Positions 1,062 to 17,703 of a stretch of DNA of 25,180 nucleotides are shown piece by piece (within the stretch, counting starts at the first letter, position 1; each line of letters starts with the position of its first letter). The stretch is from Verrucomicrobiia bacterium. Its GTDB lineage: Bacteria; Verrucomicrobiota; Verrucomicrobiia; Methylacidiphilales; CALFVM01. The DNA lies in the NCBI GenBank assembly GCA_046719555.1, contig JBDNCR010000001.1:1-25180 (forward strand), in the 5' to 3' direction. Position numbers and translations under genes: made by a program. Below the pieces are notes generated by a model. It had not been told where the DNA came from. It saw only the letters and a list, made by a program, of their open reading frames with translations, and did not search any database.

Positions 1062-1850
1062 ATGAATCCAACGACATTGCCTTTGGAGGATACGTTCTCC
1101 GACATTTTGGGTAAGGCGGCCCGGGCTCAGGGGGTGGAGGAGGGAGCGCTGGGTCGGTTGGCCTTGGGCGAGTGGGACCCGGCTTTGGCCGAGACGGTGT
1201 GCCGACGCTTGGGGTTATCGTTTCCCGCTCTGGCGGCGATTGCGGAAGGCCGCTGGCGGCCGACCTCCCCTGCCCTGCCCGACGGGCTGGCGGGTTTCAC
1301 CACACCGTTCGGGGACATGACGGTGAATGCTTTCCTGGTTTGGGATCGGGCAACGGGCGCGGCCGCGGTGTTTGACACCGGCGGGGATGCTTCGGCGCTG
1401 TTGGCCGAGGTGACGCGGTTGAAGGTCCGTGTGAAGGTTTTGTTCCTGACCCACACGCATGGAGATCATGTGTTGGAGGTGGATCGGGTGGCGGAAACGA
1501 CCGGATGCCAGGTCCTGGCTCCGGAGGGTGAACCGTTGGCGGGTGCGGAGATGGTCCGAAGCGGTGAGACGGTGGCGGTCGGGGGCCTTCAGGTGGAGGC
1601 GCGCCCGACGCCGGGACATTCGCCCGGCGGAACGACCTATTTGGTGCATGGGTTGCGGGCGCCGGTGGCGGTGGTGGGGGACGCGATTTTTGCCGGGTCG
1701 GTCGGGGGAATCCGGGGCGATTATGCGGCGGCCTTGGAGGCCATCCGTCGGGAGATTCTTTCCCGTCAGGACAACACCTTGTTGTGCCCAGGACATGGTC
1801 CCCTAACGACGGTGGGCCAGGAACGGGCGCACAATCCTTTCTTCGCATGA
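1062..1850 (+). CDS. MBL-fold metallo-hydrolase (glyoxalase II/YcbL-like) with ~65 aa N-terminal helical extension
   Basis: THTHGDH (HxHxDH), TPGHS, VGDAIF and CPGHG metal-ligand motifs, plus the C-terminal ERAHNPF typical of GloB-like proteins. GAAGGAG lies upstream at 1041-1047. Confidence 0.9.
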   Translation: MNPTTLPLEDTFSDILGKAARAQGVEEGALGRLALGEWDPALAETVCRRLGLSFPALAAIAEGRWRPTSPALPDGLAGFTTPFGDMTVNAFLVWDRATGAAAVFDTGGDASALLAEVTRLKVRVKVLFLTHTHGDHVLEVDRVAETTGCQVLAPEGEPLAGAEMVRSGETVAVGGLQVEARPTPGHSPGGTTYLVHGLRAPVAVVGDAIFAGSVGGIRGDYAAALEAIRREILSRQDNTLLCPGHGPLTTVGQERAHNPFFA

Positions 1851-2764
1851 AACCGGGGCCGTTGCGGATTGGGGTGGTCGGGGTGGGACGGATGGGGGCG
1901 AATATGGCCCGGCGGTTGAAGGATCGGGGTCACTTGGTGACCGCCGTTTTTGATGTGCGGTCGGAGGCGGCCCAGGAGTTGGCCAGGGAGTTGGGGGCGG
2001 AGGCTCCCGACCGGTTGGCCGGGGTTACGACGGCTGCGGAGCTGATCTTCACGGTGGTTTCGGATGATGCAGCGATGCGAACGATCTTTGCTTCGGAGGG
2101 GGATTCGTTGCGGGTTGGAGCGGAGGGACGTATTTTCATCAATTGCGCGACGGTTTCGCCGGGGGTGCATCGGGAGGTGGAGGCTCAGGCCCGGGCGGTG
2201 GGGGCCCGGACGTTGGAGGCGTGCATGGCGTCCAGCATTACCCAGGCGCGGGACGGGACGCTCTATCTGATGTGTGGTGGGGATCGAGCCGTGTTTGAGG
2301 AGGTCAAGCCGGTGTTGGAGGACTTGGCGGTGAGCGTGCGCTGGGTGGGAGAAACAGGGCGGGCGGCGCAGGTCAAGGCGCTGGTCAACATGGTGATGAA
2401 TATCAACACGGCCGGTTTGGCTGAGGGTCTGGGCCTGGCTGAGGCGTTGGGGCTCGATCTGACCATGGTCAGAGAAGTGTTTTCGCAAACCGGGGCAGCG
2501 TCCCGGGTGTTGGAGACCGATGGGGCCGATATGCAGAACCGGGACCACGCCTGCTTTTTCTCTGCGGCTCATGCGGCCAAGGATTCGGGCATTGCGCTCG
2601 AGTTGGCGCGGGAAGTTGGCTTGGATTTGCCGCTGGCCCGGGCGACGCTGGAGCAGTTCCGCGAGATGGTGGCGCGGGGTCTGGGCGAGTTGGATAAATC
2701 GGGCGTGGCCGAGTTGACGTTCCGGGGTCGAGGTGCGGCAAGCGGAGGATCCGGGCCTCGGTGA
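1847..2764 (+). CDS. NAD(P)-dependent oxidoreductase, 3-hydroxyisobutyrate/beta-hydroxyacid dehydrogenase family (305 aa)
   Basis: IGVVGVGRMGANMA Rossmann motif, FINCATVSP, catalytic-Lys region QVKALVNM, and AAKDSGIA. The start is placed at ATG 1847 because it overlaps the MBL stop (ATGA); the ORF track's 1784 start is an upstream extension. Confidence 0.9.
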   Translation: MKPGPLRIGVVGVGRMGANMARRLKDRGHLVTAVFDVRSEAAQELARELGAEAPDRLAGVTTAAELIFTVVSDDAAMRTIFASEGDSLRVGAEGRIFINCATVSPGVHREVEAQARAVGARTLEACMASSITQARDGTLYLMCGGDRAVFEEVKPVLEDLAVSVRWVGETGRAAQVKALVNMVMNINTAGLAEGLGLAEALGLDLTMVREVFSQTGAASRVLETDGADMQNRDHACFFSAAHAAKDSGIALELAREVGLDLPLARATLEQFREMVARGLGELDKSGVAELTFRGRGAASGGSGPR

Positions 2765-2765
2765 T

Positions 2766-3827
2766 TTAGGGCGCGGCGGGTTGCTGCTGGGTGACGCAGT
2801 GGAGGGCGCCCAACCCGGCGGCGACGTGCGTGCATTCGATGCCGATGACTTGGCGATCAGGGAAGCAGCCGCGGAGGATGTCGAGGGCGAGTTGGTCTTG
2901 GGGACAGGAATAGATGGGGACCAGGACGGCGGCGTTGCCGATGTAAAAGTTCGCGTAGCTGGCGGGGGAACGGCCGAAGGGGCCTTCTTTGCGCGCGGGC
3001 ATGGGCAATTCGATAATCTCAAAAGGATCGCCCTGAAGGTTACGTGCTTGGCGGAGGGTATCGAGGTTGCGTTGGAGCGGTTCGTGATTGGGATCGTCCG
3101 GGTTGGGTTCGACGGCGGTGACGATGGTGTTGAGGCCGACAAATCGGGAGATGTCGTCCACGTGCCCGTCGGTGTCGTCCCCTTCGATGCCGTCGTCGAG
3201 CCAGATGATGTCCGAGACGCCGAGGTAGGTTTTGAGGCGAGCCTCAATTTCAGCCTGGGAAAGGTGGGGGTTGCGGTTGGGGTTGAGGAGGCATTGGCGG
3301 GTGGTGAGCAGGGAGCCAGCGCCATTGACGTCGATCGAGCCGCCCTCGAGGACGAGGTCGTGGGCAAGGACCGGGCAGCCGAGCATGGCGGCCAGGCGGC
3401 GGGGGATGATGTCGTCATCGTCCCAGGGGCCATATTTTTTTCCCCAGGAGTTGAAGACGAAGTCGTTGGCGACCAATCGGGGTTGGCGGGTGTCGCGGGC
3501 GACCAGGAAGATGGGGCCGGAGTCGCGCATCCAGGCGTCGTTGTTGGGGATGACGTGAACCGCGACGCGTTCGGGGACAGCGGCGGAGGCACGGAGCCGT
3601 TGACGGATTTCGTCGGCATCGCGGGGGCTATTGGCCAGGAAGTGGACAGTTTCGCCGGGGCTGAGGAGTTCAGCCATGCGGATCCAAACGGCTTGGACTT
3701 CGGGGAGGGATTCGGGCCAGGTCTCCGCGTTGGAGGGCCAGGCGAGCCAGGTGGCGTCGTGGGGCTCCCACTCGGCCGGCATGCGATAGCCGGAGAAGTC
3801 GAACTGGGCAGGGTCAAGGGCGGTCAT
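2766..3827 (-). CDS. aguA: Agmatine deiminase (peptidyl-arginine deiminase family)
   Basis: RMPAEWEPHDATWLAWP, DAWMRDSGP, LEGGSIDVNG, DTDGHVDD (catalytic His), ASYANFY and GALHCVTQQQP (catalytic Cys). Coupled to aguB by an ATGA overlap. Confidence 0.92.
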   Translation of the reverse strand: MTALDPAQFDFSGYRMPAEWEPHDATWLAWPSNAETWPESLPEVQAVWIRMAELLSPGETVHFLANSPRDADEIRQRLRASAAVPERVAVHVIPNNDAWMRDSGPIFLVARDTRQPRLVANDFVFNSWGKKYGPWDDDDIIPRRLAAMLGCPVLAHDLVLEGGSIDVNGAGSLLTTRQCLLNPNRNPHLSQAEIEARLKTYLGVSDIIWLDDGIEGDDTDGHVDDISRFVGLNTIVTAVEPNPDDPNHEPLQRNLDTLRQARNLQGDPFEIIELPMPARKEGPFGRSPASYANFYIGNAAVLVPIYSCPQDQLALDILRGCFPDRQVIGIECTHVAAGLGALHCVTQQQPAAP

Positions 3828-4702
3828 GCGTCGAGGTAGCGGGAGGTGATGGGTCCGTAGGCGTCGATGCGCCGGTCTCGGAGGAAGGGCCAGTGTCGGC
3901 GGGTGCGATCGACTTCAGCCAGGGGACAGTCAACGAGGAAGGTTTCCTCCCGGTCGTGGGGGGCGAGGTGGAGGAGTTCGCCGAACGGGTCGGAGACGAA
4001 ACTGCCGCCCCAGAAGTTGAGGCTGCCTTCAGGACCAACCCGGTTGACCGAGGCGACAAAGACCCCGTTGGCGATGGCGTGGGCGCGTTGGATGGTTTGC
4101 CAGGCGTTGTATTGGGCTTGGCGGATGGCGGGGTCGGTCTCGGCCTGAGCCCAGCCGATGGCGGTGGGGTAGAAAAGGATTTGGGCGCCGGAGAGGGCCG
4201 TGAGTCGGGCCGCCTCGGGATACCATTGGTCCCAGCAGACGAGGACACCGATTTTGCCGAAGCGGGTGGTGAAGGTTTTGAAGCCGAGGTCGCCCGGGGT
4301 GAAGTAGAATTTTTCGTAGAAAGCGGGGTCGTCCGGGATGTGCATCTTGCGATAGATGCCGAGGAGGGAGCCATCGGCATCGAGCACGGCGGCGGTGTTG
4401 TGATAGAGGCCCGGGGCGCGACGTTCAAAGAGGCTGGCAACGATGACGATGCCGCAATCTTGGGCGACGGAAGCAAGGGTTTCGGTGCTGGGGCCGGGGA
4501 TCGGCTCGGCCAGGTCGAAGGTGTCCACGTCTTCGGATTGGCAGAAGTAGAGGCTGCGGAAGAGCTCTTGGAGGCAGACGATCTGAGCGCCGCGGGCGGC
4601 GGCGTCGCGGATTCGGTCCACGGCCTTGGCGAGGTTGTCGGCAGGGGCGGCCGAGCAGGACATTTGGACAAGGCCAAGGCGGACGGTGGGAGAATCAGGC
4701 AT
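3824..4702 (-). CDS. aguB: N-carbamoylputrescine amidase (carbon-nitrogen hydrolase/nitrilase family), 292 aa
   Basis: Glu-Lys-Cys triad motifs CLQELF, YRKMHIPDDP and VCWDQWYPE, plus YPTAIGW and QRAHAIANG. Adjacent to aguA. Start is placed at MPDSPTVRLGLVQM (4702). Confidence 0.9.
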   Translation of the reverse strand: MPDSPTVRLGLVQMSCSAAPADNLAKAVDRIRDAAARGAQIVCLQELFRSLYFCQSEDVDTFDLAEPIPGPSTETLASVAQDCGIVIVASLFERRAPGLYHNTAAVLDADGSLLGIYRKMHIPDDPAFYEKFYFTPGDLGFKTFTTRFGKIGVLVCWDQWYPEAARLTALSGAQILFYPTAIGWAQAETDPAIRQAQYNAWQTIQRAHAIANGVFVASVNRVGPEGSLNFWGGSFVSDPFGELLHLAPHDREETFLVDCPLAEVDRTRRHWPFLRDRRIDAYGPITSRYLDA

Positions 4703-8899: not shown

Positions 8900-9175
8900 A
8901 TGAAAAAAATTCTTCTGGCGTTTGTTCTGTGCTTTTCCCCCAGCCTTTGGGCCGATGTGTATTTCGGGCCTGCATCGTCTTCCGGCACCTTTCGCGGTGA
9001 GATTACGGCGATTGAACCTGGGCGGGAGTCGATTACGGTTCGCTCGGCAGAGAACACGGTGAAGATGTTTCACGTTCCGGCGAATCGGATTGGTCGATAT
9101 CAGACGGGGCAGGTGGTGACGGTTTCCTACGAGGAGGCTTACGCCTGGCCTTTGCGGACGCGTTCGATCCGCTGA
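8900..9175 (+). CDS. Small secreted protein, probable OB-fold (DUF1344/CusF-like pattern)
   Basis: Sec signal [18 protein letters not shown]|D. The mature part [17 protein letters not shown]...F.V....[14 protein letters not shown] follows the G.I..ID.....ITL....L..GxxVxVxY OB-fold pattern. Family assignment is by eye only. Confidence 0.65.
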
Positions 9176-11373
9176 GGGTGGGGTTGGAGGCGGACCGCCC
9201 CGCATTTGTAGGCGGGTTGACGTGAATGGGGATCGACGATCCATGGGGTCAGCTGGTTGGCCTGCTGATCGTGCATGGGGATAAAGACGTGCCCCGGCGG
9301 GACGGTGGGGGTGACGCCGGCCCAGCCGGTGATGGAGCCCCGTGGCGAGTGGACGGTGAGGGGGTCACCGTCGGCGATGTGGGCAGCCTTGGCGTCGGTG
9401 GGATGGATCTCGATCCGAAGGCGGGAGGGATGAAGTTTGCGGAGGATGGCGGATTTCTCGGTTCGGCTCCCGGTGTGCCACTGGGAGGAGCTGCCGCGTC
9501 CGGTGAGCAGCCAGAGGGGGAAATCGGGGCTGGGCGTTTCTGGAGCAGGTGCGGGCGGGTCGAAGATCAGGCGGGCTTGGCCATCGGGGTGATAGAAGCG
9601 ACGATCTTGGAACAGGCGACGTTCTTGTTTGGAGGAATCGGGGAGGGGTGTGGCCGGGTAGGGCCATTGAATGCCGCCAAGCTCTTCGAGGTGGGCATAG
9701 TCGCGGATGCCGGTGATGTCGCAGGGTTGCCCGGCACTGCATTGTTTGAGGAGTTGGAACACCGCTTCGGGGGTGGTCCAACGGGTGAACAGGTGTCCGC
9801 AGCCCCAGGCATCGGCGAGGGCTCGGAAGATACGGAAATCGGAGAGGGCCTGGCCGGGAGGGCGGCGGACGGGACGGATGACGCCGATGCGGCGTTCGGA
9901 GTTGATGAAGGTTCCTTCTTTTTCGCCCCAACCGGCGGCGGGCAGGTAGAGATCGGCGCCTTGCGCAGTTTCCGTGGTGGGATACATGTCCTGAACCACG
10001 AGAAAGTCGAGTTGCTCCCGCAGACGGTGGAAGCGGTTCTGGTGAATCCAAGAGTGGGCGGGATTGGTCGCGATGATCCACAGGGCGCGGATGCGGCCTG
10101 CTTCAACGGCTTCGAGGATTTGATCGTAGGCCAGGCTGTTCTGATCGGGGATGCGGGCGGGGTCGATGTCGAGGATGCGGGCGATTTTGTCGCGGTGGGC
10201 GGGGTTGGTGAAGTCGTGGCCGCCGAGGAGGTTGGTGGTGTTGGAGAAAAGGCGGGAGCCCATGGCATTGCACTGGCCGGTGATGGAGTTGGCACCGGTG
10301 CCGGGCTGGCCGATGTTGCCGGTGATGAGGGCGAGGTTGATGATGGCCTGGGCGGTTCGGGTGGCTTGGTGGCTTTGATTGACGCCCATGGTCCACCAGA
10401 AGGAAATTCGTTGGCCGGAGGTGATGAGGGCGGCGAAGCGTTCGTAGGCGGCGGGGTCCAGCCCGGTTTCGGCCAGGACCCGATCGGGAGTGAAGTCGCG
10501 GGTGAAGGTTTCATAGGCGTCCAGGCCGTGGGCGTAGGTGGCGACGGTGGTCCGGTTGACCGCGCCACGGGCAAACGCTTCGCGAGCTAGCCCATAGAAG
10601 AGAGTGAGATCGGATTTCGGCCGTGCCGGGAGGTGAAGAGTCGAGGCGCAGGCGGTTTCGGTGCGTCGGGGATCGATGACGACAATTTCCGGGTTGCGGC
10701 GGTTCCGCATGACCCGCTGCCACATGATGGGATGGGCGATGCAGGGGTTGGCGCCGATGAAGACGAGGACATCGCTCTGTTCGAAATCAGCGTAGGTGAA
10801 CGGGGGTGCGTCGAAGCCGAAGGATTGTTTGTAAGCCGTAACGGCGGTGGCCATGCATTGGCGGGTGTTGCCATCGCCGTGCAGCATGCCCATGCCGAAT
10901 TTGGCTAAAGCGCCAAGGAAGGCCATCTCTTCGCAAACGATTTGCCCGGTGGAAAGAAAAGCGGCCGCATGGGGACCGTGGCGCGATTGAACGGAGCGGA
11001 TTCTGGAGGAGAATTCCTTGAGGGCTTCCGGCCAGGAAAGAGGACGGGTTATTTTGCCCCGCCGAAGCAACGGAGTGGTGCCGCGATCGGGGGCCTCGAG
11101 TGGGGCGAGGGCTTCCCAACCTTTGGGACAGGCCATGCCGAGGTTGACTGGATAGTGTGCGTCCGGGGTGAGGTTGACGGCACGGCCTTCGCGGAGATGG
11201 AGGGTGAGATTGCAGCCGGTGGAGCAGAAGCCACAGACCGAGCCGGTGACCGCGTCGGGCTGGTTGCGGAAGGGAACTTGTCCGAGTCCGAAACGGCCTG
11301 GCGTGCGCACCAACTCGGCCGTGAGCACGCCGTCCCATTCGCGCAGGGTCGGTTGGGGAAGTTTGAATTTCAT
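9139..11373 (-). CDS. nasA: Assimilatory-type nitrate reductase catalytic subunit (Mo-bisPGD, one [4Fe-4S]), 744 aa
   Basis: CGFCSTGC...CPKG N-terminal Fe-S motif, [11 protein letters not shown] (Mo-ligand Cys region of NasA/NarB/NapA), [29 protein letters not shown] and QWHTGSRT. No twin-arginine signal. Start at 11373 is supported by an ATGA overlap with the upstream gene; 11625 is an extension in the ORF track. Confidence 0.92.
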
Positions 11374-12860
11374 GATCCGGGCATTTTGGTGGCGACTCCG
11401 CTTTTGAAGTAGAGCCAGCGTTCGATCAGTTCGCCGAGAAGGGCCAGCAGCAGGGCGGCAGGGAGGGAGAGGAAAAAGAGAGGAATCGCCATCGCACCGA
11501 TCAGGAAACGGGCCAGGGTCCAACGGCGCAGAGGGCCGCGCAGCAGCAGCGCGGAGCGTTGTCGGTCGGTGAGGGTTGGAGACTGGGCATCTGAATTTTG
11601 AAGGGAAATCATGCGGGCTTCCCATGCGAGTTTCAAAATCAGAAGGGCGGGCAGCGCGGCGGGCAGGGCGAAGAGGGCGGTGGTCCCGAAGAAGCGGAGG
11701 AAGGTGCGTGAGCCGCGCCAGACCTGGCGGTGGGTGTCGTGATAGACCATGGCCGAGCAGAAGACACCGAGGATCCCGGTGACGATGGCGGCGGTGAGGG
11801 CGGCAGGAACGACCCAGGGTGGGGTCGGTGCGGGAGAGAAAGGCAAGGCAACTTCAAGGCCAAGGGTGGCGGTGGAGGCTGCGAGAAAGGTGCCAAGGGC
11901 GATGATTTCACGGCTGAGCCAGGAGGTGCGCCAGCCGAGAAAGGCGCGCCAGGCTTTGAGGGGCTGGCCGAGGTGAAGGATGCTGGCGGCGAGGCCGAGA
12001 TGGATGAGGACAACGGCGGCGATGAGCCAGGCAAGGGGTGAAGCTTGGAAGGTGGCGGCGATGAGAAGGCCGAGCCCGGTTTGGGTGAAAACGAGCATGA
12101 TGACGAGCGGCCCGTGACCTGGCTGAACGGTTGGTGCGGCGTGGTCCGCGGCACGGAGGGATTCGGCTAAAGGTTTGGTTGAAACGTAACGGGTGGTGGG
12201 GATGGTGATGCGGGGATCGGGGGTGTGGGGCAGAAAGACGCCTTCGGCGGCGCGGGCGCGGGCCGTGGAGGTGCGGATGACGCGGATGGCGATGGCCGAG
12301 GTCGGGCAGGCCTGAACGCAGGCCGGGGCTTCCCCTGCGGCAAGGCGTCCGTGGCACATGTCGCATTTGCGCACGATGCCGAGGCGGTCGGAATACTTCG
12401 GCACCTCGTAGGGACATTTCATGATGCAGTATTGGCAGCCGATGCACTGGTCATCGAGGTGGCGAACCACCCCGGTGACGGAATCTTTTTCGTAGGCGAG
12501 GACGGGGCAGCCGTGGGCGCAGCCAGGGTCGGCGCAGTGGTGGCAGGCCGTGGTGACGGTCTGGACGACAGCCTGGCCGTTGGCATGGCCTTGGAGGCGG
12601 CCGACTTCGCGCCAGCTTTCCTGGTCATCGAGGCCGTTGAGACTGTGACAGGCGGCGACGCAGGCTTTGCAGCCGGTGCATTTGTCGAGATCGACTTCGA
12701 AGGCGTATTGCTCGCCGGGACCTGGTGCGGAAAGAGGAATGAGATCGCGGTAGGTGCCCGCGAGGGCGTGGTCGCGGCGGTCGTGTTCGCGGGCGAAGCG
12801 AGCAACGGGGGTAAGGGTGCGCTGCTCGGAGAGAAGTTCGTCGATGAGGGTGGGACTCAT
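11370..12860 (-). CDS. Fused DmsB-like 4x[4Fe-4S] ferredoxin plus DmsC/YnfH (NrfD superfamily) membrane anchor, 496 aa
   Basis: Sixteen Cys in four groups ([44 protein letters not shown]), followed by ~7-8 TM segments with DmsC hallmarks [34 protein letters not shown] and [14 protein letters not shown] overlaps at both ends. Confidence 0.9.
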
Positions 12861-14548
12861 CCGAGCATTTCCTGGAGTTGGCCCACTTCGTGACGGGTGG
12901 TGAATTGTTGAAAAGACTCGCCGTCCTGCCGTTTGGCCAGATAGAGGCGCAGGAGTTTTTCGATGTGGCGTTTGGCCTGCTCGAAGGGCATGGCCTGGAA
13001 GAGTTGTCTTCCAATCGCACGGTTCTGGCCGAAGCCGCCCCCAACGCAAACGTGGTAGGCCTCCTGGCCATCACGGGTTTTGGCCCCGAGCAATCCGATG
13101 TCGCCCATGTAATGTTGGGCACAGGAGTGGGGGCAGCCGGTGAAGTGGATGTTGACGGGCTGGTCGAGGGAAAGACGCTGGTCGAGGTAACGAGCGAGTT
13201 CCAAGGCGTGGCCCTTGGTGTCGGTCGCGGCGTATTTGCAGTAACGGTTGCCGGTGCAGGCGATGATGCCGCTGGTCAGGTTGGATTGCCGCCAGTCCAA
13301 TCCGACTTTGATCAGCGCTTTTTTTACGGTTTCGACAAAGCCGTTGGGGATATTGGGAATGACGACGTTCTGCCAGACAGTCAGGCGCAGGTCACCGGAA
13401 CCGTAGTTTTCCGCCAGCTCGGCCAGACGATGAAGTTGCTTGGGGGTGATCTGGCCGATGGGCAACGCCACGCCGATGAAAGTCAGTCCTTCCTGCTTCT
13501 GTCGGTGAACGCCGATGTGGCTGTGGGGCAGCTCCTGGCAGGGGTAGGCGAGGGGAGCTTCTTCGAGCGCGGAGCGGGTCAACGGATGGCCGAGCAGTTT
13601 TTCGGTTTCCTCCCGATAACGTTCGAGGCTCCATTGTTCGAGCAGGTGTTTGAGACGGGCTTTTTTGCGGTCGCCGCGGTTGCCGTTGCGGATGAAGACA
13701 CGGATCAGGGCCACGATCACCCGGACAATTTCTTCCGGGGGCACGAGGACGCCGAGATCGCGGGCGAAGGCCTTGTGACCGGTGGCACCGCCGAGGGCGA
13801 TGCGGAAGCGGACTTCGGAGCCGACGCGGACGGCCTTGACGCCGATGTCATTGGTGTCCTCGACCGAGCCGATGAGTCCGCCGCCGTCAAAGGCGATGTT
13901 GAACTTGCGCGGCAGGTCGTAGAATTCGCGATGGGAGAGGATGAACTGGGAAAGTTTCTGCACGTAGGGCGTGCAGTCGATCAACTCGAGGGGATCGACT
14001 CCGGCGGTCGGATTGGCGGTGATGTTGCGGATGTTGTCGGCACCCGCCCCTTGGGTGTGGAGGCCGATGGCTTGCACTCGGCGCAGAAACTCCGGCGTAT
14101 CACGGGGGGCGATCAGACGGATTTGCAGGTTGGCGCGGGTGGTGACTTGGATGTAACCGGTGGTGAGCTGTGCGGCAAGGTCGGCGAGTTCATGGGCTTG
14201 GTAGGATTTGAGTTGTCCGCCGGGGATGCGGAGGCGGGCCATGAAGGCGTCTTTGACCGGGGTGAGATAAAACAAGCCGTGCCACTTGAAGCGGAAGATC
14301 TCCTCTTTATCGGGCGCTTGGTCGGCCCGCGCATTTTCTTCAATCCGATAATAGGAATCCAGCGGGTGCTCTTCTTTTTTGATCCGTTCTTCGGCAATGA
14401 GGATGGGTGGTTCCGCGGCATCGGGGGCCGGGGCCAAATCGCCGAAGCGGATGCCTTGGTCCTCAAGGCCTTTGAAGAAGCCCTGCAAATAGGACCTCTG
14501 GTCGGGCGCGAGATCTTTGCCGAGGATGGAAGTGGGAATGGGGGTCAT
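12857..14548 (-). CDS. nirA: Siroheme/[4Fe-4S] nitrite reductase, NirA family
   Basis: FKWHGLF, FMARLRIPGG, TTRANLQIR, GADNIRN, LPRKFNIA (nitrite-type Asn rather than the SiR RKFK), and siroheme/Fe-S ligands ACTGNRYC and TGCPHSCAQH. Confidence 0.92.
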   Translation of the reverse strand: MTPIPTSILGKDLAPDQRSYLQGFFKGLEDQGIRFGDLAPAPDAAEPPILIAEERIKKEEHPLDSYYRIEENARADQAPDKEEIFRFKWHGLFYLTPVKDAFMARLRIPGGQLKSYQAHELADLAAQLTTGYIQVTTRANLQIRLIAPRDTPEFLRRVQAIGLHTQGAGADNIRNITANPTAGVDPLELIDCTPYVQKLSQFILSHREFYDLPRKFNIAFDGGGLIGSVEDTNDIGVKAVRVGSEVRFRIALGGATGHKAFARDLGVLVPPEEIVRVIVALIRVFIRNGNRGDRKKARLKHLLEQWSLERYREETEKLLGHPLTRSALEEAPLAYPCQELPHSHIGVHRQKQEGLTFIGVALPIGQITPKQLHRLAELAENYGSGDLRLTVWQNVVIPNIPNGFVETVKKALIKVGLDWRQSNLTSGIIACTGNRYCKYAATDTKGHALELARYLDQRLSLDQPVNIHFTGCPHSCAQHYMGDIGLLGAKTRDGQEAYHVCVGGGFGQNRAIGRQLFQAMPFEQAKRHIEKLLRLYLAKRQDGESFQQFTTRHEVGQLQEMLG

Positions 14549-14568
14549 GGGGAGGAGTGTTTTGACGG

Positions 14569-16215
14569 TTAATACACGTCGCGCTGATAACGCTTTTGCG
14601 CTTGGAGAGTGTGGAGGAAGTCGGAGGCTTGGTCTGGGGAGAGACCGCCGACCTGGACGGCAATTTGGTGGAGCGCGGCTTCGACATCCTTGGCCATCCG
14701 CTTGGCATCTCCGCAGACGTAGAAATGGCCGCCCTCTTGGAGCCAGGACCAGAGTTCGGCGGCCTGTTCGAGCATCCGGTTTTGCACGTAGATTTTCTCC
14801 TGCTGATCGCGAGAAAAGGCGGTGTCTAGGCGGGTGAGAAGACCGTCTTGCTGCATGGCTTGGAGTTCGTCGCGGTAGAGGAAGTCGCAGGCGGCTTTTT
14901 GGTCGCCAAAGAAGAGCCAGTTCTTTCCTGGGGCGCCGATGGCGCGCCGTTCTTGGAGGAAGGCACGGAAAGGGGCGATGCCGGTGCCGGGGCCGACCAT
15001 GATCATGGGTCGGGAGGGGTCGGTGGGAGGTTTGAAGTTGGGCGAGCGGTGGACAAAGATGGGGAGGGGAGTGTCGGGACCGACCCGTTCAGCGAGGAAG
15101 GTGGAGCAGACGCCGGAGCAGAGGCGGCCGTTGAGTTGGTAGCGGACGACACCGACGGTGAGGTGAACTTCGCCGGGATGGGCTTTGGGGCTGGAGGAGA
15201 TGGAGTAGAGGCGGGGCTGGAGTTTTTTAAGGGGGGCAACCAGATCGGTCGCTGCGATGTGACCTGTGGGAAGCTCGGCCCGAAAGTGGCCGAGGTCGAG
15301 GTGCTCGGTGAGGGCTTTGCGCAAGGGGAAGTCCCCGATTTTGGGGAGGGTCACGGCTTCTTCACCATCGAGCCCGGCGGCATCCAGAATGTCCTGAACC
15401 AAGGCCGGATCATTCTGCGGAAGCACGCCGAGGGCATCGCCGACCTCGTAGGTGAGCCCGGAATCGCCGAGGAGGATTTCAAGGTGGCGGGTGTCTTTGG
15501 TAGAGCCGGGTCCGTTGAGGCGACGGTTGGTTTTGAGTCGGGCGAGGTAGGGATGAGTTTTGGAGAAGGAGGCCGGGGGTGGAGAGGCGGTGGGCGTGAG
15601 TTGGGGTGTTTGGGCGCCGACTCCGAGGGTCTGGATGAAGCCACGGAACCATTCGGCGGCGGGTGTTTCGTAGTCCACATCGCAATCGGTGCGGGGATAG
15701 ATCCGTTTGGCGCCGAGTTCTTCGAGCCTTTGGTCGAGGCGCTTACCGGCTTCGCAGAAGTGGACGTAGTTGGTGTCGCCGAGGGCCAGAACGGAATATT
15801 CGAGATGGGCGAGGGAGGGGGCGGAACCGTTCCGGATGAAATTCCAGAAGGCCTGAGCGTTGTCGGGCATGTCCCCATCGCCGTAGGTGCTGGTGATGAT
15901 GGCTAGCCGGGATTCTTTGGAGAAGTCGATCTTGGTGAATTCGTCCAGGCTGTGAACGCGGGAGTCGAAGCCGACGGCGCGGGCTTGTTGTGAGAATTTG
16001 CGGGCGAGTTGTTCGGAGGAGCCGGTTTGGGAGCCGAAAAGGAACAGCAGCGGCCCGTGGACCGGCGGCGGGGGGGAGTCCGCCGCCGACCGTGCGGTGC
16101 CGATGTGCCCTGCGGCCAGCAGGCCCGCCAAGTAGCCGTTGATCCAGGCCCGTTGTTCGGGGGAAAAGGGTGCGGTTTCGGGAATGAACGCAACGTCGGT
16201 TGGCGGTGGGGTCAT
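14569..16215 (-). CDS. cysJ: CysJ-like NADPH diflavin (FMN/FAD) reductase; probable electron donor to NirA, 548 aa
   Basis: Flavodoxin motifs FGSQTGSSE, TSTYGDGDMPDNA and LGDTNYVHFC; FAD/NADPH motifs RLYSISSS, GVCSTFL, MVGPGTGIAPFRAF, TAFSRDQ, YVCGDAKRMAKDV and RYQRDVY. The symbol denotes the family, not a proven sulfite role. A GTG at 16221 is an alternative start. Confidence 0.92.
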   Translation of the reverse strand: MTPPPTDVAFIPETAPFSPEQRAWINGYLAGLLAAGHIGTARSAADSPPPPVHGPLLFLFGSQTGSSEQLARKFSQQARAVGFDSRVHSLDEFTKIDFSKESRLAIITSTYGDGDMPDNAQAFWNFIRNGSAPSLAHLEYSVLALGDTNYVHFCEAGKRLDQRLEELGAKRIYPRTDCDVDYETPAAEWFRGFIQTLGVGAQTPQLTPTASPPPASFSKTHPYLARLKTNRRLNGPGSTKDTRHLEILLGDSGLTYEVGDALGVLPQNDPALVQDILDAAGLDGEEAVTLPKIGDFPLRKALTEHLDLGHFRAELPTGHIAATDLVAPLKKLQPRLYSISSSPKAHPGEVHLTVGVVRYQLNGRLCSGVCSTFLAERVGPDTPLPIFVHRSPNFKPPTDPSRPMIMVGPGTGIAPFRAFLQERRAIGAPGKNWLFFGDQKAACDFLYRDELQAMQQDGLLTRLDTAFSRDQQEKIYVQNRMLEQAAELWSWLQEGGHFYVCGDAKRMAKDVEAALHQIAVQVGGLSPDQASDFLHTLQAQKRYQRDVY

Positions 16216-16221
16216 GGGCAC

Positions 16222-17703
16222 CTAGAAGCTGATGAGGGCTTGGACGTAGATGAAATCGGCGTCGGCGGTTTGGCCGGTTGGGGCGGTGTCGGAGATGTAA
16301 CCGCCGGTGAAGAAGTGGGCGTAACCGGCTTCAAGCTTGAGCCATTGATTGAGGTCATACCAGAGGGTGAGGTCGATCTCGGACCCGACAAAGCCGGAGG
16401 GATTGCGGTTGAGGGCGTTGGCGTAGCGGGGGGCTCCGCCGACGGGTTGTTGGGCGGCGAAGCGCCAGACGTCCCGGGTTTCGGCCAACCAGAAAAGGTG
16501 GTAGTCGAGTTTGATCCGGAGTTTCGGCGTTGGTTGGACGGTGAGGCCGATGGCCGGGTTGTGCAGGTTTTGCCAGGAGAACCGATCCATGTAGCCGTAG
16601 AATTTGTGGTTGGTGGGGAAGAGATTTTGAAAGGTGTGGGAGATACCGTCGTTGGGGTCGCTGTCGCCTGAGCCGTAGTTGTACTCGAGGTGGAGCCGAG
16701 GTTTCCACGGGTGGGTGAAGGTGTAACCGCCCTCGATGTGGAGAGCCCCAGCGAGAAGGTCTTGCCGGTTGATGTTGATGGGATTTCCGCCAACGAGGGG
16801 GCCGAAGCCTTGGGGGTTGGAGAGGCCACCGATTTGGAAAGCAAATTCGGCGTTGGCGTCCCAGGGTCCGAAGGCCCCCTTTTTTGATTTCAGGCGGGTG
16901 CCGAGGGTGGCGTAGTCTCCGGCGGGGGCGGTGTTGCCATCGACCCGTTCGTCCCGTCCGGTGAAGGTGGTGGAGGGGGTGACTTGGGATTTGCTGCGCC
17001 AGAGCAGGAAGAGGTCGGAATCGAAGGAGGGGATGAGGTCGGTGGTGGCGTAGAGGCCGGTGAAGAGGTCGGTGGTGTCGGGATTGTTGAATCCTTCGGT
17101 TCGGTGGAGGACGACGTAGCCGGCGAAGGCATCGAGGGTGAAGCCGCCGTTTTGGTAGCTCAGGCGGAGGGCGTCGAAGGTTCGGGCATTGTTGTCCCAC
17201 TCAAAGGCACCGATCAGCCGCTCGTCACCGTAGGAGAGGATTTGCCGCCCGATTTTGAATCTGAGGGGCTGCCCCCAGAGGTTATCGAGTTGGAGGTAGC
17301 CCTGACGCAGGGCGATGGGGCTATCGTTGGAGATGAATTCGCGGGTGGCATCGTTCTGGGGGTTGTCAAAGAAGGTGCGGGAGTCTTGGAGTTGGGCGTA
17401 GGCGGTGAAGTTCTCAACGGGCTGGAACTTGAGTCCGAGGCGGAGCCGTTGGAGGAGCGCCTGGGAATCGCGGACGTCGGTGCTGTCGGAAAAATCGATC
17501 CAGTTGCTTCGCCACTCAAATCGTTCGCGGAACTGGAAGTCGAGGGTGAACTGATGATGGTAAAAGGTGATGGGTTGGCCGGGTTGCCAAGGGTCTTGGC
17601 GGAGTTTGGCTTGGGCCGAGGTTGGGCGGCCGGTGAGGGCGGGGGATCCGGCTTGGACGATGGTGGGGAGGAGGAGGGCGAGGAGGTAGAGATGAGGTTT
17701 CAT
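16222..17703 (-). CDS. Alginate export (AlgE-like) family outer-membrane beta-barrel; putative nitrate/nitrite porin
   Basis: Sec signal [88 protein letters not shown], and a C-terminal beta-signal YVQALISF. Embedded in the nitrate operon. Confidence 0.85.

Follow-up and report, generated by a model that had tools for sequence, protein, structure and literature searches.

What supplies the electrons for a plant-type nitrite reductase whose gene lies next to one for a CysJ-type diflavin reductase? The question is raised by a 25,180-bp contig (JBDNCR010000001.1) of a Verrucomicrobiia metagenome-assembled genome (MAG; assembly GCA_046719555.1; completeness 74.5%), analysed over its whole length and hereafter called the window. 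It carries a nitrate-assimilation operon of ten genes, tightly packed on the minus strand and divergent from a LysR gene, encoding two NrtA-like binding proteins, an NrtB permease, two NrtC/D ATPases, an outer-membrane barrel of the Alginate_exp type, a CysJ-like flavoprotein, the hemoprotein NirA, a DmsB-like/DmsC-like fusion protein, and a NasA-type molybdoenzyme. Usual accounts of assimilatory nitrite reduction recognize two solutions, a ferredoxin-dependent NirA and an NAD(P)H-dependent NirBD. The cysJ-like and nirA genes probably encode the two halves of an assimilatory nitrite reductase dependent on reduced nicotinamide adenine dinucleotide phosphate (NADPH), and the combination of a plant-type NirA with a CysJ-type NADPH reductase suggests a third way of powering nitrite assimilation. 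What would be new here is the architecture of CysJI built on a hemoprotein of the nitrite reductase (NiR) lineage. The evidence lies in the domain content and cofactor motifs of the two proteins, the active-site type of the hemoprotein, the linkage of the two genes across phyla, a tag shared by both N-termini, and a separate sulfite-reductase gene in the same genome.

Lineage and substrate of the hemoprotein

The nirA gene (12857..14548, minus strand; ATG 14548, stop 12857-12859) encodes a sirohaem/[4Fe-4S] nitrite reductase of 563 amino acids, assigned to the 'NirA family protein' clade from Pfam, NCBIfam, PDB, and tree placement. It starts 20 nt after the stop codon of the cysJ-like gene (14569..16215, minus strand; ATG 16215, stop 14569-14571), and the extent that an earlier note on this DNA had given for the pair, 12857-16215, coincides exactly with the gene boundaries. 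The protein is built of two NIR_SIR/NIR_SIR_ferr repeats (NIR_SIR, 2.6e-50; NIR_SIR_ferr, 1.5e-34). Its score of 706.1 bits passes the cut-off of 523 of the NCBIfam model NF007126 (PRK09567), 'NirA family protein'. It fails those of the ferredoxin--nitrite reductase model NF007125 (EC 1.7.7.1; 399.9 bits, cut-off 594), of the CysI/Sir models TIGR02041 (128 vs 756.55), TIGR02042 (132 vs 731.5), and NF010029 (171 vs 457), and of the NirB model TIGR02374 (60.9 bits vs 578.35), to which the match is confined to the sirohaem part.

Among solved structures, the best sequence matches are tobacco Nii3 (3b0g) and spinach NiR (2akj), at about 1e-80, followed by the NirA of Mycobacterium tuberculosis (5e-60), maize SiR (3e-37), and, last, E. 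coli SiRHP (about 1e-17). Solved relatives rank in the same order by fold when compared with an AlphaFold2 model of the protein (mean predicted local distance difference test score, pLDDT, 89.2). The window protein shares with the ferredoxin-dependent NirA/Nii enzymes of plants and cyanobacteria their fold (TM about 0.8, 32% identity), their Cys ligands, an R..RN loop, an RK-x-N motif, and the predicted reaction from nitrite to ammonium. Unlike them, it is extended at the N-terminus by a tag and tether of about 50 residues, its gene adjoins a dedicated diflavin reductase gene, and it falls in a distinct clade with a long stem, below the NF007125 cut-off. That clade comprises 82 rows of the hemoprotein tree and is supported by a value of 100 in the Shimodaira-Hasegawa-like approximate likelihood ratio test (SH-aLRT). 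One hit, on a plasmid of the cyanobacterium Kovacikia (L097), was tried as an outgroup and kept out of the tree, as it has SPKFS, lacks the RN loop, and looks CobG-like or degenerate.

The three signatures on which the earlier note had based its assignment, KWHGLF, GADNIRN, and LPRKFN, are all present in the translation. KWHGLF occupies residues 88-93. The second lies within GAGADNIRN (residues 167-175; 14024..14050, minus strand), the anion-binding loop with the conserved Arg174, as identified in the family alignment; the pattern G[AST]GADN[ILV]RN dominates the family rows, its six commonest variants accounting for 71 of 79, and enzymes from sulfate clusters differ from it. This loop aligns with G-M-DNVRN of tobacco NiR, the site of the Met175 mutant series in the PDB. 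The active-site motif LPRKFN (residues 212-217; 13898..13915, minus strand) has Asn217 where sulfite reductases have their second Lys, and this Asn aligns with that of RKWN in tobacco NiR, the position of the deposited mutant N226K. The Cys ligands of the cluster and sirohaem, C431 and C437 in CTGNRYC and C472 and C476 in TGCPHSCAQ (13121..13258, minus strand), are invariant in a 42-row NirA alignment and in the outgroups.

These data bear directly on whether the pair might be an NADPH sulfite reductase, that is, a divergent CysJI lying by chance in a nitrate operon. Such a reading could appeal to the NCBI and JGI pipelines, which both call the flavoprotein a 'sulfite reductase flavoprotein', and to the fairly close structural match of the hemoprotein to M. 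tuberculosis 'NirA' (1zj8), which we take to be a sulfite reductase. Yet no solved structures are closer to the hemoprotein than those of plant nitrite reductases, its scores with the CysI and Sir models fall well short of the cut-offs, nrt and nasA genes surround the pair, and the active site has RKFN, not RKxK. RKFN is invariant in the 79 aligned family rows (79/79) and recurs in a haloarchaeal ferredoxin-nitrite reductase from a nasA cluster, as against RK[FYH]K in all five enzymes drawn from clusters annotated for sulfate assimilation (Deinococcus, Streptomyces, Planctomyces, Cytobacillus, and E. coli CysI). The genome furthermore encodes a second sirohaem hemoprotein, of the sulfite-reductase type with NLPRKYK, split over the ends of contigs C320 and C319 (L002:1093-1770 and L004:2-685, both on the plus strand); the check for a separate cysJI or sir locus proposed in the earlier note thus turned up a Sir-type gene. 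No flavoprotein gene lies beside this RKYK hemoprotein. A relative of CysJ consisting of the FAD/NADPH part alone (389 amino acids) is encoded on contig C262 (L005:964-2133, minus strand). The host appears to reverse the arrangement of E. coli, having a stand-alone sulfite reductase and a nitrite reductase coupled to a flavoprotein. No NirB scoring above the TIGR02374 cut-off was found in the 74.5%-complete genome.

Genetic data point the same way. The Bradyrhizobium NirA, bll4571, whose membership of the family rests on a relative in a Bradyrhizobium MAG (locus L084, where a NirA of the clade is followed by a flavoprotein gene), is needed for the bacterium to grow on either nitrate or nitrite, and its mutant has lost nitrite reductase activity with methyl viologen (PMC4724949). 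A relative needed for nitrite assimilation argues against a role in sulfite reduction, and the sulfite-reductase reading as a whole is very improbable. The comparison of sequences and models supports the placement of the hemoprotein in the nitrite-reductase lineage, not as a derivative of CysI. The earlier description of the pair as a sulfite reductase repurposed for nitrite would accordingly suit the flavoprotein and not the hemoprotein, whose assignment to the nitrite reductases in that note is borne out by the solved structures and by the alignment of its Asn with tobacco RKWN.

The flavoprotein and its linkage to NirA

The partner is a complete diflavin reductase of the CysJ lineage (548 amino acids), as the earlier note had recognized, with the CysJ-type plan of an N-terminal oligomerisation segment followed by flavodoxin, flavin adenine dinucleotide (FAD), and NADPH domains. 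Pfam detects Flavodoxin_1 (1.7e-32), FAD_binding_1 (1.5e-33), and NAD_binding_1 (9.8e-19), among solved structures E. coli SiRFP (6efv) is the best match, at 3.3e-129, and the AlphaFold2 model has a mean pLDDT of 89.1. The flavodoxin domain, which binds flavin mononucleotide (FMN), spans residues ~55-196 (15628..16053, minus strand; Flavodoxin_1 at 61-184 of a 550-amino-acid reading, AlphaFold2 elements from E55 to H196) and aligns with the FMN domain of E. coli SiRFP through the segments SQTG, TST-G-G-PP, and LGD--Y. The FAD/NADPH domain, of the FNR-like type, covers residues ~223-548 (14572..15549, minus strand) and ends in RDVY. It keeps the SiRFP segments RLYSI-SS, GPGTGIAPFRAF, SRDQ-EK-YVQ, and C-terminal RYQRDVY, and segments of this domain are invariant in the flavoprotein alignment. 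The S-R-x-x-x-E-K segment common to E. coli SiRFP is presumably consistent with NADPH as the nucleotide. The closest relative of the flavoprotein, at 74% identity, is encoded in a Puniceicoccaceae MAG; proteins of Terrimicrobiaceae and other Verrucomicrobiota come next. A search of representative proteins with the flavoprotein gave 150 CysJ-like sequences, which lacked gene context and were left aside.

Nevertheless, the flavoprotein scores below the cut-offs of both CysJ equivalog models (TIGR01931, 589 vs 668.15; NF008197, 508.8 vs 838). The model NF004859, 'sulfite reductase subunit alpha', was tried as a marker of the partner family and rejected: the window protein passes it (493 vs 432), but so does E. 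coli CysJ (451). The pair would work like CysJI yet fails the model tests for CysJ, CysI, ferredoxin-nitrite reductase, and NirB, passing that of the 'NirA family protein' alone. It resembles E. coli CysJI in consisting of two proteins, an FMN-FAD-NADPH diflavin reductase and a sirohaem/[4Fe-4S] hemoprotein, and in keeping the oligomerisation-region motif of CysJ at the N-terminus of the flavoprotein. It differs in that its hemoprotein is of the NiR lineage, with Asn for the second active-site Lys and a match to SiRHP of only about 1e-17, and bears a tag of the CysJ type, which E. coli CysI lacks. With NirBD, it would share the use of a pyridine nucleotide to drive an assimilatory sirohaem nitrite reductase, although NirB combines its FAD/NADH and sirohaem domains in one polypeptide, the former being of the pyridine-nucleotide-disulfide type.

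The association of the two genes extends well beyond the window. A scan based on an alignment and covering a single genome from each species returned at least 596 stretches, of which at least 557 were confirmed as relatives of NirA, and gene maps were drawn by tblastn for the best 80 loci among these. The FAD/NADPH (FNR) part of a CysJ-like protein is encoded on the same strand as nirA in 73 of the 80, and in two further loci the N-terminal part of the partner is present and cut by the contig end, which brings the count to 75/80. Three others end no more than 160 nt from nirA on the side where the partner is expected. This leaves two true exceptions, L016 and L029; the latter (L029:7734-9512, from an Akkermansiaceae MAG) is alone among the NirA loci in having 8 kb on either side and yet lacking a CysJ-like gene. 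A median of 50 nt separates the two hits. In 29 loci the partner precedes nirA and in 44 it follows, with the Fe-S fusion gene and nasA standing between the two in three of these 44. The loci come from Verrucomicrobiota, Planctomycetota, Acidobacteriota, Pseudomonadota (Alpha- and Betaproteobacteria), Methylomirabilota, and one MAG of the Eremiobacterota/Vulcanimicrobiota lineage, at least six phyla in all. Among culturable bacteria, Acidipila sp. EB88 and Rubritalea marina have both genes. Plasmids carry the pair as well: in a Methylocystis plasmid record a 'NirA family protein' adjoins a 'sulfite reductase subunit alpha' inside a nasTS-nrtABC...nitrate reductase cluster, and a Sulfitobacter plasmid record has the same NirA-flavoprotein pair. 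Pairing characterizes the family as a whole and is not peculiar to the window. NirA itself scores above the family cut-off in 20 of 201 sampled genomes of the phylum.

The type of partner, with an FMN domain or with a Cys-rich segment instead, follows the NirA tree. FMN-less partners keep the tag and the FAD/NADPH domain and have the Cys-rich segment in place of the FMN domain (CGQCGYNC in Methylocystis). They occur in Proteobacteria, in Planctomycetota, and in the Eremiobacterota-type MAG, at the Methylocystis plasmid locus (L008:10749-12338) and at L038, L045, L046, L051, L052, L068, L073, L078, L080, and L084-L088. The Bradyrhizobium partner bll4570, listed in the published table as a 'probable sulfite reductase (NADPH) flavoprotein', differs from that of the window in the same way, having a Cys-rich segment and no FMN domain.

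With respect to gene order, the window NirA groups with Spartobacteria, Terrimicrobiaceae, and Luteolibacter loci (L010-L015, L027) that share the order cysJ-like gene, nirA, Fe-S fusion gene, nasA, and not with the Puniceicoccales and Cerasicoccus loci (L066, L089), whose order differs. Judging from these trees and maps, the operon may have moved within the phylum.

A tag shared by both proteins

The two proteins carry the same kind of N-terminal tag. In the flavoprotein, it covers residues 13-42 (16090..16179, minus strand; core APFSPEQRAWINGYLAGL), with a predicted helix at 19-36 and a disordered linker at 36-47. In NirA, it covers residues 9-38 (14435..14524, minus strand; core APDQRSYLQGFFKGL), with a helix at 15-30 and a low-confidence linker at ~31-50. 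The helices are modelled with pLDDT ~80-85 in both proteins (about 84 in the flavoprotein), before confidence falls in the linker (below 50 in the flavoprotein). The common pattern is Q-x-x-Y-L-x-G-F-x-x-G, with conserved glycines four apart (GxxxG). With the conserved Gln as the reference point, agreement goes beyond the pattern to Phe at -4, Glu at -1, Lys/Arg at +1, and Ala at +9. A strict version of the pattern was found in 58 of the 80 loci; those missed had divergent but clear tags, and a looser pattern was adopted. The latter is found at the expected place in 78 of 80 NirA proteins and 70 of 71 partners; its background rate is 4 in 2180 open reading frames (ORFs) of the host genome (0.18%), and it has no match in seven hemoproteins or FNR proteins from outside the family. 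The Akkermansiaceae NirA at L029, which has no partner, has no tag either, a single case of joint loss.

An unanchored hhalign comparison matches the partner tag to residues 27-47 of E. coli CysJ (E 3e-6); profile comparison with the N-terminus of CysI gave no tag match. According to a published paper, the N-terminal region of E. coli CysJ is solely responsible for its oligomerisation. The tag common to NirA and its partner thus matches an oligomerisation region, and a tethered NirA-flavoprotein complex is therefore likely. In such a complex, donor and acceptor would probably be kept within a single hetero-oligomer by packing of the GxxxG helices against one another. A bolder proposal, to which we give slightly less than an even chance, is that the tag acts as a hub for hetero-oligomerisation, that NirA acquired the self-assembly helix of CysJ, and that the outcome is a third, widespread class of nitrite reductase of the form NADPH-diflavin-NirA.

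The catalytic route that we propose for the window enzyme would start with hydride transfer from NADPH to the FAD of the CysJ-lineage flavoprotein. Electrons would then pass singly from FAD to FMN, and the flavodoxin domain, mobile and tethered, would deliver them to the [4Fe-4S]-sirohaem centre of NirA, where nitrite would be reduced to ammonium by six electrons. The N-terminal helices of both proteins would assemble donor and acceptor into one particle. The three elements that we infer in this scheme are NADPH as the donor, direct electron transfer to NirA, and assembly through the tag. Docking would then differ from that in E. coli sulfite reductase, which uses the N-terminus of CysI and the FNR domain.

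Several points weigh against the proposal of an NADPH-dependent nitrite reductase. Gene linkage indicates that the two proteins function together, but not in which direction, or how directly, electrons flow. At L016, the NirA is tagged, but the 2.2 kb of upstream sequence available there contains no partner gene. The profile match between the NirA tags and the partner tags, at 98% probability, is inflated, as one pattern anchored both sets. The E. coli precedent for subunit binding is a different one, the N-terminus of SiRHP binding the FNR domain. The authors of the Bradyrhizobium study assumed ferredoxin as the donor of NirA, and bll4570 was not considered (PMC4724949). A full-text literature search, from whose coverage most subscription journals are absent, returned no paper describing or testing the NirA-flavoprotein pairing. 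Finally, a host genome that is 74.5% complete leaves room for other donors, such as ferredoxins, flavodoxins, or NirBD.

The nitrate-reductase side and rival electron donors

The gene that follows nirA (11370..12860, minus strand; Pfam Fer4_11 and DmsC) is a fusion that joins a DmsB-like multi-cluster Fe-S domain to a DmsC-like membrane anchor, and its start overlaps the nirA stop codon as ATGA. The statement in the earlier note that no ferredoxin gene is present is therefore not upheld, a ferredoxin-like Fe-S/anchor fusion being encoded directly after nirA (11370-12860). The next gene encodes a NasA-type molybdopterin nitrate reductase (9139..11373, minus strand, likely ATG 11373; Pfam Molybdopterin, Molydop_binding, and Molybdop_Fe4S4), and the fusion and NasA genes are translationally coupled. 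No twin-arginine (Tat) signal was seen in NasA or in the fusion protein. These features suggest a membrane-anchored, possibly quinol-fed assimilatory nitrate reductase.

Could the fusion protein pass electrons from the quinol pool to NirA as well as to NasA, with the flavoprotein being merely auxiliary, for example in reductive activation or as a back-up? The overlap of its gene with nirA and its multi-cluster ferredoxin-like domain lend this some plausibility. Nevertheless, in all 38 loci with the window-type nasA the fusion gene is the one immediately before it, wherever nirA and the cysJ-like gene lie. The fusion gene moves with nasA when the order changes and is absent from many NirA-flavoprotein loci; it travels with nasA, not with nirA, in the gene maps. 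Quinol is, moreover, a poor reductant for a sirohaem/[4Fe-4S] centre. We consider this alternative improbable, and under the NADPH proposal the fusion protein would serve as the separate electron input of the nitrate reductase.

A different possibility is that NirA depends on ferredoxin or flavodoxin in the cell, and that the role of the CysJ-like protein is to recycle this carrier or to supply a different acceptor, for instance the nitrate reductase or a protein that detoxifies NO. It draws on precedent, as the NirA-type enzymes studied so far use ferredoxin and the Bradyrhizobium NirA is drawn as ferredoxin-dependent, and on the flavoprotein Flp, which feeds NasC in Bradyrhizobium (PMC4724949). 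It has to contend with the flavodoxin domain already built into the flavoprotein, with the tag common to both proteins, and with the distribution of the pair. Besides the loci with the window-type NasA, which always has an Fe-S/anchor partner of its own, 13 loci have a different type of NasA, with a fusion-like gene directly upstream in two and an Flp-like FAD oxidoreductase in the locus in four, and 24 have no NasA in the fetched flank, including 11 whose flanks extend the full 8 kb either way. The pair is thus kept in three kinds of nitrate-reductase context, and also where no nitrate reductase lies within 8 kb. Because the nitrate-reductase side varies independently, the flavoprotein appears tied to NirA and is unlikely to feed NasA, contrary to what the earlier note had suggested as a possible additional role. 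Taken together, a ferredoxin- or flavodoxin-dependent NirA is unlikely, and the NADPH-dependent pair, for which the comparative support is good, is the reading that we retain.

If it is true, the consequences reach beyond one genome, as hundreds of species-representative genomes of phyla from soil and water carry the pair (at least 557 relatives). The flavoprotein would be routinely misnamed 'sulfite reductase', which would distort gene counts for the sulfur and nitrogen cycles in metagenomics. For the Bradyrhizobium NirA, which has been studied genetically, the assigned electron donor may be wrong. The shared tag would also offer a simple, testable model for tethering a diflavin reductase to its acceptor.

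Elsewhere in the operon, the outer-membrane barrel of the Alginate_exp family (16222-17703, minus strand) is encoded between the ABC ATPase and reductase genes, its stop codon preceding ATG 16215 of the cysJ-like gene by 6 nt. Barrel homologues occur in other NirA loci (L022, L043, L047, L058, L067, L075, L077, and L082), and the protein may be a nitrate/nitrite porin. Outside the operon, two minus-strand ORFs, at 1766-3817 (683 amino acids) and 3814-4677 (287 amino acids), have no Pfam match, and plus-strand ORFs of like size overlap them. GC skew is positive in all 1-kb bins of the contig (1-25180), at 0.05 in the first bin and 0.15-0.42 thereafter, independently of gene orientation, and the C-rich strand carries most of the nitrate-operon genes.

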